A DNA stretch of 64,000 nt. It comes from a virus. Where the stretch lies: the UHGV virus genome UHGV-0149956. One strand, 5' to 3'. Every line of letters starts with the position of its first letter. The stretch's first letter is position 1. The notes under the pieces were generated by a model, which had not been told where the DNA came from, made no database searches, and saw only the letters and a program-made list of their open reading frames with translations. The translations under genes and the position numbers were made by a program. Below, piece by piece: positions 15,453 to 63,030 of this stretch.

Positions 15453-15559
15453 GTATTTTTAAGTCGCGAATGCTATCTTTTCGCATCATATTGACCTTTT
15501 AATCGTTCAGGCTTATAGTTCCGCCGTCGTAGCAAATTCTGCGACCGGGTTTAGCAGCC

Positions 15560-15650
15560 TGAATGTTAGTGCGGACAACCGCAGATATCCGATATTGCGG
15601 TATTTTTGTGTCCGTAAAACCGCGTTACGCCCAAATTATGGTGGGGCGTG
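15560..15650 (+). ncRNA. Candidate c4-like antisense regulatory RNA region
   Basis: Structured segment (inverted repeats CGGACAA...TTGTGTCCG and CCGCAGATAT...ATATTGCGG) between the operator and icd, the expected place for c4 in an immI region; boundaries approximate. Confidence 0.3.
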
Positions 15651-15766
15651 ATGGGGAGGCTTCGGCCTGCTGGTTTCACTAACGCCAGTCTGCTAACCCC
15701 GTCACGTCCTGCCACCTGTTTAGCAGCGGGTAGCAGGTTGTTAAACCTGTTAGTGAGGCCGTAACT

Positions 15767-17097: not shown

Positions 17098-17114
17098 TTT
17101 GCTCTAATAAATTT
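17098..17114 (+). promoter_or_regulatory. C1-repressor-type operator 17-mer upstream of kilA-repL
   Basis: TTTGCTCTAATAAATTT. Confidence 0.6.
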
Positions 17115-17183
17115 CGTTTTCTAAGTGCAAAGAATCACCATTTCGAGCTGGTGATTGAAGGTTGATGCAAATTTGGAGAAAAA

Positions 17184-17984
17184 ATGCAACAAACATTCAA
17201 TGCGGATATGAATATATCAAACCTTCATCAAAATGTCGATCCTTCAACCACTCTTCCTGTTATTTGTGGTGTTGAAATTACGACCGACCGCGCTGGCCGT
17301 TACAACCTTAATGCTCTACACAGAGCGAGCGGACTCGGTGCCCATAAAGCGCCAGCTCAATGGCTAAGAACGCTGTCAGCAAAACAGCTCATCGAAGAGC
17401 TTGAAAAAGAAACTATGCAGAATTGCATAGTTTCGTTCGAAGGCCGTGGCGGCGGCACGTTTGCCCATGAATTGCTCGCTGTGGAGTACGCAGGCTGGAT
17501 TTCTCCCGCGTTTCGGCTGAAGGTAAACCAGACATTTATCGACTATCGAGCCGGAAGATTACAACCTGCTATTCCGCAGAGTCTCCCTGAAGCTCTCCGT
17601 TTGGCTGCCGACCTGGCAGAGCAAAAGCAACGGCTGGAACAAAAAATGCTTATGGATGCACCTAAAGTCGAATTCGCCGAACGCGTTGCTACCGCCAGCG
17701 GGGTTCTAATCGGCAACTATGCCAAAGTGCTCGGTCTGGGCCAAAACTATCTCTTCACCTGGTTGCGTGATAACGGAATTCTGATCGCAACCGGTGAACG
17801 CAGGAACGTCCCCAAACAAGAATACATATCCCGTGGGTATTTCACCCTTAAAGAAACCGTGATCGATACAAGCAATGGAAGCAGGATTTCTTTCACGACT
17901 CGTATAACCGGCAAAGGTCAGCAGTGGCTGATGAAGCGATTGCTTGATACTGGTGTGCTGGTACCTGTCGCGGCAACGCGCTAA
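17184..17984 (+). CDS. kilA: KilA (KilA-N domain plus Ant-like C-terminal domain)
   Basis: 266 aa; C-terminal region paralogous to the Ant-like protein; followed by repL-like gene. Confidence 0.6.
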   Translation: MQQTFNADMNISNLHQNVDPSTTLPVICGVEITTDRAGRYNLNALHRASGLGAHKAPAQWLRTLSAKQLIEELEKETMQNCIVSFEGRGGGTFAHELLAVEYAGWISPAFRLKVNQTFIDYRAGRLQPAIPQSLPEALRLAADLAEQKQRLEQKMLMDAPKVEFAERVATASGVLIGNYAKVLGLGQNYLFTWLRDNGILIATGERRNVPKQEYISRGYFTLKETVIDTSNGSRISFTTRITGKGQQWLMKRLLDTGVLVPVAATR

Positions 17985-18013
17985 CAGACGTAGTAAGAAC
18001 CACCAGCATTGTA

Positions 18014-18859
18014 ATGCTGGCTAAAGTCACTTTCCTGAGCTGTATAACGATGAGCGATTTTACTTTTTCTGGCTATGAATTGGCCTGCTTTGTAACACAC
18101 TCCGGTCTATCCCGTAGCGCCGGGCATATCCTGTCGCAATGTGCAAATCTAGCGGCAACAACCAGTGAATACTTCATTCACAAGCCTCACCGCCTGATCG
18201 CGGCAGAAACTGGTTATAGCCAATCAACCGTCGTTCGTGCATTCCGTGAAGCTGTAAACAAAGGAATTCTGTCTGTAGAGATTGTTATCGGCGATCACCG
18301 TGAACGTCGCGCTAACCTGTACCGGTTTACACCATCCTTTTTGGCCTTCGCACAACAAGCCAAAAATGCGCTGATTGAAAGCAAATTAAAGATCTCTTCA
18401 GCGGCAACCAAGGTTAAAGCTGTTCTCGCTAAGACATTGGCTTTATTTAATTTTTTATCCACACCCCCATGTCAAAATGATACCCCCTCCCCCTGTCAGG
18501 ATGACGTGGCAATAAAGAATAAGAAGTCACAAGTTAAAAAAACAAAAAGATCAGTTTCCGGCGGTGCCGGAACGACCAGACTCAAAAAATTGACTTCATG
18601 GATCGCTGAGGCAAAAGCAAAGGCTGACAATCTGCGGTTATCCAAAAAACGCGCTCAAAAACATGAGTTCAAGCAGAAAGTAGAGGCGGCAGCGCGGAAA
18701 TATGCTTACCTGAAGGACAAGCGTTCTCCTGATATTGGCGGGATATCAAACTTCGATAATCTGCCGCATTGCATGACGGTAAACGAAGCTCTTAATGCGG
18801 TTTTAGCCAAAAATAAAGATAACGAACAATGGGGTATACCGGCAGGATTCAGAGGGTGA
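18014..18859 (+). CDS. repL: Lytic replication protein (RepL-like)
   Basis: 281-aa basic protein directly downstream of kilA; operon order. Confidence 0.5.
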   Translation: MLAKVTFLSCITMSDFTFSGYELACFVTHSGLSRSAGHILSQCANLAATTSEYFIHKPHRLIAAETGYSQSTVVRAFREAVNKGILSVEIVIGDHRERRANLYRFTPSFLAFAQQAKNALIESKLKISSAATKVKAVLAKTLALFNFLSTPPCQNDTPSPCQDDVAIKNKKSQVKKTKRSVSGGAGTTRLKKLTSWIAEAKAKADNLRLSKKRAQKHEFKQKVEAAARKYAYLKDKRSPDIGGISNFDNLPHCMTVNEALNAVLAKNKDNEQWGIPAGFRG

Positions 18860-19155
18860 TAGATTGCTCTAATCTGGAGTCACCTGGCGTTTTCAGTTTG
18901 AGGTCGGAGATGCAATCTAATTTTTTACAGTTAGCGATCGCTTTTGCAGGATATGTTTGTATTGGCTTCTGTGTATACATGATCAGCCGAAAAATGCTTG
19001 TCGATATCGACCGCAAAGAACGAGCAGAGGAGATCTTAGTATGGATTTTCTTTGGCGCGGTCTGGCCATTAGGGATCATGTTTGCTGCAACATTTCTTCT
19101 GATGTGGATATTCACCCTTCCAGGTGATTTCTATAGAAAAAAAGCCAGACATTGA
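18829..19155 (+). CDS. Small membrane protein
   Basis: Two hydrophobic helices (LQLAIAFAGYVCIGFCVYMI, FGAVWPLGIMFAATFLLMWIF); true start may be internal near 18910. Confidence 0.35.
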   Translation: MGYTGRIQRVIDCSNLESPGVFSLRSEMQSNFLQLAIAFAGYVCIGFCVYMISRKMLVDIDRKERAEEILVWIFFGAVWPLGIMFAATFLLMWIFTLPGDFYRKKARH

Positions 19156-19259
19156 TACAATCGTTGCGGGTGCTTGAGGCTATCTGCTTCAGGCATTACC
19201 CGAAAAGCAGATAGAAGAAAGCCCCAGATAACATTACGCGTCCTGCAAGACGCTTAACA

Positions 19260-19335
19260 TTAATCTGAGGCCATATCTATGCTTAGCATACGTAGATTAG
19301 CCTCTTACCGACCAAAAGGTCAAGGAGAAGCAGGC
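19260..19335 (-). ncRNA. Expected sok-like antisense RNA of the hok locus (position inferred)
   Basis: Hok/Sok architecture places the antisense RNA opposite the mok leader; no promoter verified. Confidence 0.3.
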
Positions 19336-19485
19336 TATGAAGCAGCAAAAAGCGATGTTAATCGCTCTGATCGTCATCTGTTTAACCGTCATTGTGACGG
19401 CACTGGTAACGAGGAAAGACCTCTGCGAGGTACGAATCCGAACCGGCCAGACGGAGGTCACTGTCTTCACAGCCTACGAATCTGA
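19279..19485 (+). CDS. mok: Mok-like overlapping reading frame
   Basis: 68-aa ORF beginning upstream of and overlapping hok in another frame. Confidence 0.5.
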   Translation: MLSIRRLASYRPKGQGEAGYEAAKSDVNRSDRHLFNRHCDGTGNEERPLRGTNPNRPDGGHCLHSLRI

Positions 19486-19492
19486 AAGGTAA
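19337..19492 (+). CDS. hok: Hok/Gef-family type I toxin
   Basis: MKQQKAMLIALIVICLTVIVTALVTRKDLCEVRIRTGQTEVTVFTAYESER; close to the Gef/Hok sequence as recalled. Confidence 0.85.
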   Translation: MKQQKAMLIALIVICLTVIVTALVTRKDLCEVRIRTGQTEVTVFTAYESER

Positions 19493-19560
19493 GAGACCTG
19501 GCGGGGAGAGATCTCCGCCACTCTTAGTGTGTCAGGTATCCTCAATGCACCCTTTCATCT

Positions 19561-19588
19561 CCAAATAAAAAAGCTCCCGAAGGAGCTT
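19561..19588 (-). terminator. Rho-independent terminator (bidirectional hairpin)
   Basis: Stem AAGCTCC/GGAGCTT with CGAA loop; T-run on minus strand after the 169-aa gene. Confidence 0.6.
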
Positions 19589-19608
19589 TAAAATACAAGG
19601 GATGACTC

Positions 19609-20118
19609 TTAATCCCACTCAATCCAGTTGTAGACGATACGAAGTGACGGGCGCACAGCGGCAGTCACATCTTCGGTACTAAAGTCGATTGCATCACTGT
19701 AGATTTTGCAGTCCAACATTTCAATTGTTGTAGCAGCTTTTGTTACAGCGTTAACCCCGGAAGATTTGGATTCAGGGGTAGCAGCCATCGTGATATCAAC
19801 ATAGTCCTTCGCCGCAATGCGATCCTTGATGAACTGAAGAATATCGCCTTCGATAGTCTCCACGCACTGGACCTGGATTTCCCCAGAGTTTCGAATTGGT
19901 CCGTGCTGGTTGAACTTCACACCATTCGGACCATAGTCCTCCACATCCTCGCGGGTCATTTCAGGAATTTGCGACGTGCGAACCAGTACGCTGATATCTT
20001 CATGGCCTGCAAAAGTGAGCTGGAATTCAGAAGATACCAGTCGTTCGCCTTTGGCCGCGTTGGCAGTATAGCGGCCCTTAATAAATTTACGGTTTCCCTT
20101 AGTGTTATTGTGCCCCAT
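19609..20118 (-). CDS. Tail structural protein (possible tail tube)
   Basis: 169-aa ORF downstream of sheath-like gene. Confidence 0.4.
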   Translation of the reverse strand: MGHNNTKGNRKFIKGRYTANAAKGERLVSSEFQLTFAGHEDISVLVRTSQIPEMTREDVEDYGPNGVKFNQHGPIRNSGEIQVQCVETIEGDILQFIKDRIAAKDYVDITMAATPESKSSGVNAVTKAATTIEMLDCKIYSDAIDFSTEDVTAAVRPSLRIVYNWIEWD

Positions 20119-36253: not shown

Positions 36254-36329
36254 GATGGTGTAGCTCAGCGGTTAGAGCGGTTGACTGTTAATCAACGGGT
36301 CGATGGTTCAAATCCATCCACCATCGCCA
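36254..36329 (+). tRNA. tRNA-Asn (anticodon GTT)
   Basis: Cloverleaf built by hand: acceptor GATGGTG/CACCATC, D-stem GCTC/GAGC, anticodon loop CTGTTAA, T-arm GATGG-TTCAAAT-CCATC, 3' GCCA. Confidence 0.85.
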
Positions 36330-36331
36330 AT

Positions 36332-36407
36332 GCCGGTTTAGCTCAGTTGGTAGAGCGCCTGCCTTGTAAGCAGGATGTCAGCGGTTCGAGTCCGTTAATC
36401 GGCACCA
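36332..36407 (+). tRNA. tRNA-Thr (anticodon TGT)
   Basis: Acceptor GCCGGTT/AATCGGC, anticodon stem CCTGC/GCAGG with loop CTTGTAA, T-loop TTCGAGT, 3' ACCA. Confidence 0.85.
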
Positions 36408-37847: not shown

Positions 37848-37923
37848 GGCCCTTTAGCTCAGTGGTTAGAGCTGGCGACTCATAATCGCACGGTCACCGG
37901 TTCAAGTCCGGTAGGGGCCACCA
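37848..37923 (+). tRNA. tRNA-Ile2-like (anticodon CAT; could be read as Met)
   Basis: Close to E. coli ileX as recalled: GGCCCTT acceptor, anticodon loop CTCATAA, T-arm ACCGG-TTCAAGT-CCGGT, 3' ACCA. Confidence 0.8.
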
Positions 37924-62428: not shown

Positions 62429-62650
62429 ATGCAATCCATTAACTTCCGTACCGCGCGTGGCAACCTTTCTGAAGTGCTCAACAATGTTGAAGCCGGGGAA
62501 GAGGTTGAAATCACCCGCAGAGGCCGTGAGCCAGCAGTAATTGTCAGCAAGGCTACTTTCGAAGCCTACAAAAAAGCGGCGCTGGATGCTGAATTTGCAT
62601 CCCTGTTTGACACCCTGGACTCCACCAACAAGGAACTGGTTAACCGATAA
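62429..62650 (+). CDS. phd: Antitoxin Phd
   Basis: [39 protein letters not shown], Phd/YefM fold; AGGTG SD. Confidence 0.9.
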
Positions 62651-63030
62651 TGAGGCATATATCACCGGAAGAACTTATTGCGCTTCATGATGCGAATATA
62701 AGCCGCTACGGCGGCCTGCCGGGAATGTCAGATCCGGGTAGGGCAGAGGCCATTATCGGGAGAGTTCAGGCCAGAGTTGCCTACGAAGAGATCACCGACC
62801 TTTTCGAAGTCTCCGCCACCTACCTGGTGGCTACAGCGAGAGGGCATATATTCAATGATGCCAATAAGCGTACCGCGCTAAACAGTGCGCTGCTATTTCT
62901 ACGCCGTAACGGGGTGCAGGTATTTGATTCACCTGAACTGGCAGACCTTACTGTAGGCGCTGCGACTGGCGAGATATCTGTATCTTCTGTCGCCGACACG
63001 TTACGTAGATTGTATGGTTCTGCGGAGTAG
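62650..63030 (+). CDS. doc: Toxin Doc (Fic-fold kinase)
   Basis: 126 aa with Fic-like motif [12 protein letters not shown]; start overlaps phd stop. Confidence 0.9.

Follow-up and report, generated by a model that had tools for sequence, protein, structure and literature searches.

A hok/mok/sok type I toxin-antitoxin locus of the prophage hokD/hokW subgroup in a variable slot of a P1-like phage-plasmid

The hok/sok (parB) locus of plasmid R1 is the founding post-segregational killing system, and killing has been proven for R1. Sok is an antisense RNA, and in R1 it is the 5' tail of Sok that starts the pairing with its target. Hok proteins are also encoded in prophages. HokW, found in the Stx2 prophage Sp5 and in phage 933W, is toxic and is neutralised by the 71-nt sokW RNA in a manner that depends partly on RNase III and Hfq (PMC8621323). 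After treatment of Sp5 with mitomycin C, sokW vanishes and HokW precedes the endolysin; phage yield is halved when hokW-sokW is missing, and the toxin-antitoxin system was thus shown to aid phage release (PMC8621323). Another prophage member, HokD (RelF) from the Qin prophage of E. coli K-12, is a previously characterised homolog that was reported to be toxic on overexpression and was used as a control in a survey of Hok proteins (bioRxiv 10.1101/2025.08.07.668861). According to the introduction of that survey, the native chromosomal hok loci of this clade show neither post-segregational killing nor a response to rifampicin (bioRxiv 10.1101/2025.08.07.668861).

How does the locus described here compare with these systems? 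The window that was analysed comprises 64,000 nucleotides of the virus genome UHGV-0149956. On its plus strand, a gene at 19337-19492 encodes a 51-aa protein, MKQQKAMLIALIVICLTVIVTALVTRKDLCEVRIRTGQTEVTVFTAYESER, with a hydrophobic run at residues 6-25. The assignment of this gene as hok draws on the list of open reading frames, on protein identity, and on profile matches to Pfam PF01848 HOK_GEF (E 2.4e-22; 78.7 bits, cut-off 22) and, over the full length, to phrog_251 'MokW-like host killing' (E 4.9e-32). The scores of the NCBIfam Hok HMMs lie below their curated cut-offs (49.5 vs 73); beside the strong matches to Pfam and PHROG, they were not taken to be informative. A Shine-Dalgarno (SD) sequence, AAGGAG, is located at 19322-19327, upstream of the ATG at 19337. 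Overlapping hok is the 68-codon mok reading frame (19279-19485, plus strand), which is also in the list of open reading frames; its SD sequence is GAGG at 19267-19270 and its ATG lies at 19279, the position that corresponds to the annotated mok or mokW start in the Rac and 933W records. As the mok start lies 58 nt upstream of that of hok, the two frames are out of register, and mok stops 7 nt ahead of the hok stop codon. The profile search of the translated reading frames found no Pfam family for mok, as is expected for an overlapping leader frame, and this was not counted against it. The SD sequences and start codons of mok and hok form the canonical arrangement.

When the whole window was scanned with Rfam models, the 'sok' family RF01794 matched 19168-19342 on the plus strand with 114.9 bits (gathering score 59; E 2e-25), covering the full model from 1 to 157. 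Its sense-strand orientation and its end point at the hok AUG indicate that this match corresponds to the leader of hok, in which the Sok target lies, and not to Sok itself. The Pfam, PHROG and Rfam scores place the features of the locus far beyond chance, and there can be hardly any doubt that it is a type I toxin-antitoxin locus of the hok/mok/sok kind, belonging to the prophage hokD/hokW subgroup. An earlier note on this DNA had recognised a hok/mok type I toxin locus, and the Pfam and Rfam matches together with the mok frame bear it out. The note had assigned it to 19250-19600, however, and these limits are wrong, since the true unit extends from 19134 to 19552. The span given earlier omits the hok promoter, the tac element, the 5' leader, and the 3' half of Sok, and instead takes in a bidirectional terminator on the bplB side that is part of the P1 backbone.

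A consensus scan predicts the hok promoter at 19134-19161 on the plus strand, with a -35 box TAGAAA, a 16-nt spacer, and a TG-extended -10 box TACAAT that aligns with TAGAAT of lambdoid hok loci. Transcription would start at about 19168, 7 nt past the -10 box, where the Rfam model also starts. From this predicted start, the body of the full-length hok mRNA would extend over 19168-19552, to the end of the fbi (fold-back inhibition) element; homology to the phage hokW/hokD-type loci covers exactly 19156-19552. The tac element GGGUGCUUGAGG occupies the 5' end of the mRNA (19168-19179) and pairs with the fbi element CCUCAAUGCACCC at 19540-19552, forming 12 bp with one bulge. Among the four lambdoid homologs in the alignment, three (Rac442, Tritos, and 640R1) have a stem-loop with a T-run after fbi, which is absent from the window. 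Because this native hok terminator is missing, the hairpin at 19570-19589 probably also ends hok transcription, and the 3' end of the hok mRNA is probably located there. This hairpin is part of the P1 backbone at the end of bplB; the terminator scan called it on the minus strand, and its U-tract on the plus strand is poor.

The minimum free energy (MFE) fold of the hok mRNA (19168-19556) has -153.6 kcal/mol and a z-score of -7.2, and it contains the long-range pairing of tac with fbi. Once fbi and the 3' end are deleted, tac changes its partner to the local sequence 19187-19201. The R1 hok mRNA undergoes the same kind of refolding, triggered by processing. An open mok start was absent from the MFE fold of the 3'-truncated mRNA, a level of detail at which MFE folding is unreliable; thus, the attempt to obtain the R1 'active' conformation from the truncated fold reproduced the switch of the tac partner and not the exposure of the mok start. 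Five homologs (the window and four phage loci) were used to examine the conservation of the fold. The fold derived from the window is retained in 95.6% of cells, compared with about 40% when the partners are slid, and compensatory changes are present at three pairs. In helix 1, the pairing of tac with fbi, 12 of 12 pairs are invariant and only the bulged base varies. The evidence for tac/fbi pairing is therefore conservation and not covariation, as these pairs never vary; with five sequences at 88% identity, the evidence for the fold as a whole is supportive but is not strong covariation.

The Sok antisense RNA is predicted on the minus strand from 19287 to about 19213. It would be about 75 nt long, with a 5' tail that is single-stranded, followed by a long hairpin and a U-tract, and it is complementary to the SD sequence and start codon of mok; its fold has -36.4 kcal/mol (z -6.2). 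When the annotation of phage 933W is projected onto the window, the 71-nt sokW falls exactly on 19217-19287, and the starts of mokW and hokW fall on 19279 and 19337. In a comparison of the window with four aligned phage homologs, the Sok hairpin is identical at 55-56 of 60 positions (92-93%), while the 5' tail is among the least conserved segments, with 9-13 of 15 positions identical. The putative sok promoter runs from 19323 to 19294 on the minus strand and consists of a -35 box TTGACC (19323..19318), an 18-nt spacer, and a -10 box TAATCT (19299..19294). It was located by visual inspection and by comparison with the aligned Rac and 933W loci; the consensus promoter scan did not call it, its score being below the threshold, and the -10 box matches the consensus at only 3 of 6 positions. 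The promoter region is identical at 36 of 36 positions in the Rac442 locus, and its place is presumably equivalent to that of the R1 sok promoter.

The closest described relative is hokW-sokW, which is 88% identical in DNA to the window over 19156-19552 and whose toxin is identical to the Hok of the window at 47 of 51 residues. The leader structure, the tac/fbi pairing, and the position of Sok are the same in both. In 933W, however, a 1-nt difference puts mokW in frame with hokW, whereas the mok frame of the window is out of frame, as in R1. The two loci also differ at the Sok 5' tail and mok start region, where 10 of 15 positions are identical, and in the promoter -35 box and the sequence upstream of it; moreover, the 933W locus resides in an integrated lambdoid prophage and that of the window in a plasmid prophage. 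HokD is still closer in protein sequence (48 of 51 residues), but hokD of K-12 matches only 19323-19552 of the window and is devoid of the promoter, leader, mok start, and sok, while the plasmid-borne copy is complete. The situation is different in wild E. coli, where chromosomal hokD-type copies match 19156-19552 at 87-91%; such full-length relatives include the region encoding Sok. Relatives of the hokD type are present in 4,739 of 5,426 complete E. coli genomes (87%), mostly on the chromosome and at a median of 2 places per genome. The R1 system has the same layout (hok, an out-of-frame mok, and an antisense Sok over the mok start), the same tac/fbi logic, and the same Pfam family, but is distant in sequence. 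HokW, which is nearly identical to the Hok of the window, has 44% identity with R1 Hok (PMC8621323), and the Sok hairpin of the window is longer than that of R1 by 16 nt in the Rfam alignment.

No sequence or structure element of the system is missing from the window, and all are conserved. By analogy with R1 hok/sok and Sp5 hokW-sokW, the locus is probably an intact and active toxin-antitoxin cassette in which hok is regulated by Sok, as in these two systems. A weak constitutive promoter (19134-19161) would yield a stable hok mRNA, in which tac (19168-79) would be locked to fbi (19540-52), such that the message is neither translated nor bound by Sok. Slow trimming of the 3' end would strip off fbi and allow the 5' region to refold, and mok, and through it hok, would become translatable. 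As long as the element is kept, the short-lived Sok (19287 to about 19213) would cover the SD sequence and start codon of mok, and the duplex would be degraded. When the supply of Sok ends, Hok would be made, and this single-pass membrane peptide would damage the inner membrane. From the likeness to the described systems, we infer that both RNAs are transcribed, that Hok is toxic, and what its biological role might be; that the hok locus is an 'addiction module', as the earlier note put it, is likewise something that we infer.

Where in the phage genome is this cassette located? It lies between repL (18014-18859), identified by its identity to annotated P1, and bplB (19609-20118, minus strand). 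The locus is thus positioned beside the lytic replicon, as the earlier note had described. Both flanks, repL on one side and bplB-pmgG-gp21 on the other, are 96-99% identical to annotated P1 and P7. Breakpoints were defined by pairwise blastn against P1, P7, SJ46, RCS47, and 673R5. The homology to P1 and P7 ends at 18873 and restarts at 19567, just ahead of the bidirectional bplB terminator, and the variable segment of 693 bp in between (18874-19566) carries orf81 and hok/mok/sok in place of the 1.8 kb rlfA-rlfB-pmgF region of P1 and P7. The left break falls inside the C1 operator Op55/Orlf (18863-18879), of which the first 11 of 17 bases are left. Control of the slot by this operator after repL was considered; a consensus search allowing up to 3 mismatches did not recover it.

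In the whole P1 genome (NC_005856), there is no Rfam sok match, tblastn finds no Hok-like reading frame (E 0.82 for the best hit), and the 693-bp segment has no counterpart by blastn; the same scan of the P1 genome found the C4 RNA, the c4-a1b1 targets, and the three tRNAs that are also found in the window. The site between repL and bplB in P7 (AF503408) contains no hok/sok sequence, and rlfA-rlfB-pmgF is present there. The comparison with P1 and P7 by BLAST, with breaks at 18873 and 19567 and rlfA-rlfB-pmgF in between, therefore agrees with the view that the Hok locus is not part of the P1 backbone.

The 693-bp segment is a mosaic of two parts, orf81 and the hok module, and homology of the latter to lambdoid and Stx-phage hok loci spans exactly 19156-19552 at 88-91%. 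Immediately upstream, orf81 (18910-19155, plus strand) encodes a small protein for which two hydrophobic segments are predicted (residues 8-26 and 54-70). The protein belongs to phrog_3772 (E 1e-53), a family of unknown function, and is named hypothetical protein WP_029401368.1 by PGAP; a match to Pfam B12D was below threshold (18.4 bits vs 21.5) and was dismissed as a coincidental similarity of hydrophobic stretches. The gene adjoins the toxin-antitoxin system and has no part in its mechanism.

A second and unrelated toxin-antitoxin system of the same element, also pointed out in the earlier note, is the type II addiction operon phd-doc at 62429-63030, with phd at 62429-62650 (NCBIfam TIGR01552, E 5.4e-13) and doc at 62650-63030 (TIGR01550, E 4.3e-39), both on the plus strand. 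Its presumed purpose, stabilisation of the plasmid prophage, is the same as that of hok/sok, but its mechanism is unrelated, with a protein antitoxin and a toxin of the Fic family. Furthermore, phd-doc is among the conserved core genes of P1-like elements (PMC9603915); the slot occupied by hok/sok is variable, and hok/sok is one of its alleles.

The slot itself has been described before. In a comparison of 77 P1-like phage-plasmids, rlfA-rlfB-pmgF is one of eight highly variable regions, named region 5 (PMC9603915). The hok slot lies in this published region, and other members carry alternative alleles there. To count the alleles, PLSDB records with at least 80% coverage were collected, using bplB-pmgG as the probe for the backbone. 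This probe found 673 records; the 693-bp hok segment was found in 255 (about 38%), the RCS47-type allele in 125 (about 19%), and the rlfAB-pmgF allele of P1 and P7 in 99 (about 15%), the shares assuming that the allele records fall within the 673 backbone records. Among the three alleles that were probed in the slot, the one with hok ranks first. It occurs in full in 230 of 5,426 complete E. coli genomes and at 99-100% identity in hundreds of mostly non-mobilizable plasmids of ~90-100 kb, a near-invariance that is consistent with selection or with hitch-hiking on a low-copy replicon. One carrier, pNT1F10-94k (NZ_CP075461), matches the window at 100% over both the 693-bp segment and the bplB-pmgG probe. 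The term cargo, used in the earlier note, is thus appropriate in relation to reference P1 and P7, but as cargo the locus is not out of the ordinary: neither of the other alleles probed is as common, it sits in a published variable region, and it is already annotated.

The toxin of the window is named hokD by PGAP (WP_001313475.1), and one phage record uses MokW. In the literature searched, an explicit description of hok in P1-like or IncY phage-plasmids was not found, the mentions concerning IncF, IncI2, and IncK plasmids, and the terms 'phage-plasmid' and 'phage P1' are absent from the text of the Hok survey (bioRxiv 10.1101/2025.08.07.668861). Since no dedicated paper was found, the statement that the locus is already known refers to database annotation and knowledge of the family. 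In this sense it is known: the family, the subgroup, and the variable slot have been described and the annotation is public, and the finding is correct but ordinary.

The alleles of 673R5, RCS47, and SJ46 have their sequence in common with the window as far as 19299-19302, where the sok -10 box has its upstream edge. Past this point, a minus-strand gene of phrog_7522, a family of unknown function, replaces the hok reading frame. The three alleles retain the hok leader together with a Sok-like hairpin and U-tract, which folds well and in which base changes preserve the stem. The feature names of SJ46 (NC_031129) include 'Lom outer membrane protein', possibly for the gene in its allele, but neither Pfam nor NCBIfam gives a match for this gene, and the label was set aside in favour of phrog_7522. 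The orphan Sok-like hairpin in these alleles may be either an expressed Sok or a mere terminator. A partial hok leader can be understood only as what is left of a once complete module, and the toxin-less alleles of 673R5, RCS47, and SJ46 are therefore probably descended from the complete hok allele.

Which role might the cassette play in its host element? Of the possible roles, plasmid addiction, in which the cassette would act together with phd-doc to stabilise the low-copy plasmid prophage, appears to be the most likely. This proposal is tentative and is rated only about even, because the tested members of the clade point elsewhere and because the chromosomal relatives of Sok could buffer the killing; the full-length chromosomal loci include the region encoding Sok, and in the four aligned phage homologs the Sok hairpin is identical at 55-56 of 60 positions. 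If the buffering were large, the locus might be a selfish or neutral passenger, intact but of no measurable benefit, that is hard to lose or is hitch-hiking, its killing largely offset by Sok of the chromosomal hokD type. The abundance of relatives in E. coli (4,739 of 5,426 complete genomes, with a median of 2 places in each) and the 92-93% conservation of the Sok hairpin in the comparison with the four phage homologs agree with such a passenger, as do the inactivity reported for chromosomal hok loci in post-segregational killing (bioRxiv 10.1101/2025.08.07.668861) and a slot that tolerates at least three other alleles, some of them with the toxin half deleted. However, neither of the other two alleles probed is as frequent as this one (255 records, with 673 for the backbone), which is also nearly invariant; its regulatory elements are all preserved with compensatory changes present, and the divergence of the Sok 5' tail (9-13 of 15 positions identical) would limit cross-neutralisation. 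A passenger seems unlikely. Much the same probability is given to a function in phage release, in which induction would cause Sok to drop and Hok to be made, with early membrane damage improving the release of phage. Read-through from the kilA-repL operon, itself controlled by C1, could be the trigger; it would enter hok on the same strand and meet the sok promoter head-on. A C1 operator at 17098-17114 lies upstream of kilA; kilA, repL, orf81, and hok share the plus strand, and the gap between repL and hok holds only a weak 5-bp hairpin (19112-19127). The kinship with hokW-sokW (88% of the DNA and 47 of 51 residues) is the other argument, as in Sp5 the loss of sokW after mitomycin C, the production of HokW before the endolysin, and the halved yield without the locus have all been reported (PMC8621323). 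On the other hand, the effect in Sp5 is a modest two-fold one from a single study, the read-through is deduced from the absence of a strong terminator, the annotation of P1 includes its own holins, antiholin, and endolysin, and the reference phages P1 and P7 lyse well without hok.

Prophage variable regions often house defence cargo, and this speaks for a further possibility, abortive infection. A virulent phage would shut down host transcription, Sok would decay, and Hok would kill the cell before the invader matures, so that sister lysogens are protected. The classical observations that R1 hok/sok excludes T4, as summarised in PMC13047441, would fit, but a re-test from 2026 with two strains and two vectors found that hok/Sok gave no protection against T4 (PMC13047441). 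Moreover, hok is not enriched beside defence systems (bioRxiv 10.1101/2025.08.07.668861), and the locus shows no departure from the plain hok/sok design. Abortive infection is the least probable of these roles, and plasmid addiction remains the preferred one.

A more far-reaching proposal joins the toxin-less alleles to the lysis-lysogeny decision. In place of a response to plasmid loss, or in addition to it, the hokD-type cassette would be wired to the switch by read-through of the de-repressed C1-controlled operon through orf81 and speed up lysis, and the widespread toxin-less alleles would serve as anti-addiction modules. This combination is improbable. If it were true, the read-through would add hok transcript and oppose the sok promoter, and Hok would be released at induction, as HokW is in Sp5; the toxin-less alleles, with their hok leader, Sok body, sok -10 box, and phrog_7522 gene, would let a plasmid displace an incompatible hok-positive one while the host is spared.

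As a discovery, the locus carries small weight: the system is a textbook one, and public records of hundreds of P1-like plasmids already annotate the exact allele as hokD or MokW. The toxin-less sok remnants, a possible cross-talk with the hokD-type loci on most E. coli chromosomes, and a possible link with induction are points of modest scope. The classical rlfAB-pmgF allele of P1 and P7 is a minority state of the slot. A substantial fraction of these elements (255 records against 673) probably carries two independent toxin-antitoxin modules, hok/sok and phd-doc. P1-like phage-plasmids spread ESBL and other resistance genes, and the locus bears on both the annotation and the persistence of these elements.

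The stretch is a P1-like phage-plasmid that is collinear with P1. It matches the P1 reference in having a C4 antisense RNA, the a1/b1 targets of this RNA, and three tRNA genes (window 15513-15719, 36254-36404, and 37848-37920), and nine C1-operator-like sites are found across the window, compared to 0.3 expected by chance. Homology to P1 breaks within the C1 operator Op55/Orlf, at window 18863-18879. The window reads ATTGCTCTAATCTGGAG at this position while the P1 operator is ATTGCTCTAATTATAAC, of which nothing past the first 11 bases is retained. Beyond the break lies orf81 (18910-19155, plus strand), which is placed between repL and hok and encodes a small protein (phrog_3772, labelled as of unknown function) in which two segments are hydrophobic. 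The C-terminal half of orf81 accompanies the hok leader in three other P1-like elements, RCS47, SJ46, and 673R5.

How might hok, the toxin gene of the hok/mok/sok module, be affected by transcription from its neighbours? A C1 operator is located at 17098-17114, and kilA, repL, orf81, and hok share a common orientation (17098-19168). The sole hairpin ahead of hok is weak, with a stem of 5 bp (19112-19127). Transcription of the lytic operon could extend as far as hok, where it would collide with the sok promoter. At the other end of the module, a stem-loop followed by a T-run is present 3' of fbi, the fold-back element of the hok mRNA, in the lambdoid hok loci Rac442, Tritos, and 640R1, but is absent from the window (19553-19592). 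The joint between the module and the P1 backbone is found 14 bp past fbi, just ahead of a bidirectional terminator (19570-19589) that ends bplB. This terminator has a poor U-tract on the plus strand, and thus the 3' end of the hok mRNA is uncertain in the window allele.

The relationship of mok to hok differs between loci. In phage 933W (L008:516-728, aligned to window 19279-19492), mokW as annotated shares the reading frame of hokW and gives rise to an N-terminally extended Hok, owing to a 1-nt difference near the hok Shine-Dalgarno sequence. By contrast, mok is out of frame with hok in both the window and the Rac442 locus, as it is in R1.

RNA editing may be needed for full toxicity of the window Hok. 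The context of the editing site is UACG, and the window hok has these four bases at Tyr47: the codon UAC and the G after it (19475-19478). In hokB, A-to-I editing by TadA reportedly turns a tyrosine into cysteine, and HokC, HokD, and HokE gain their second cysteine by similar recoding (bioRxiv 10.1101/2025.08.07.668861).

Toxin-less remnants of the locus are present in 673R5 (L006:2030-2420), RCS47 (L005:3218-3610), and SJ46 (L004:2655-3045), all equivalent to window 19040-19302. These alleles retain the hok leader, the whole Sok body, the hairpin with its U-tract, and the sok -10 box; from 19299-19302 onward, a minus-strand phrog_7522 gene (labelled as of unknown function) is found instead of the hok ORF. 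The orphan Sok hairpin has a strong predicted fold (z of -4 to -6), and the orphan Sok could be an anti-addiction element or merely a terminator.

When hokD/hokW-type homologs are compared, the Sok hairpin and U-tract are identical at 55-56 of 60 positions. The Sok 5' tail, which covers the mok start region (window 19273-19287), shows some of the lowest conservation within the locus, with 9-13 of 15 positions identical; this may reflect diversification of the specificity of Sok for its target, limiting cross-talk. Relatives of the hokD type occur in 4,739 of 5,426 complete E. coli genomes (87%; e.g., L013:1501-1890), where they are mostly chromosomal and found at a median of two places per genome. 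Cross-neutralisation between plasmid and chromosomal Sok is therefore a realistic complication for a role of the locus in addiction.
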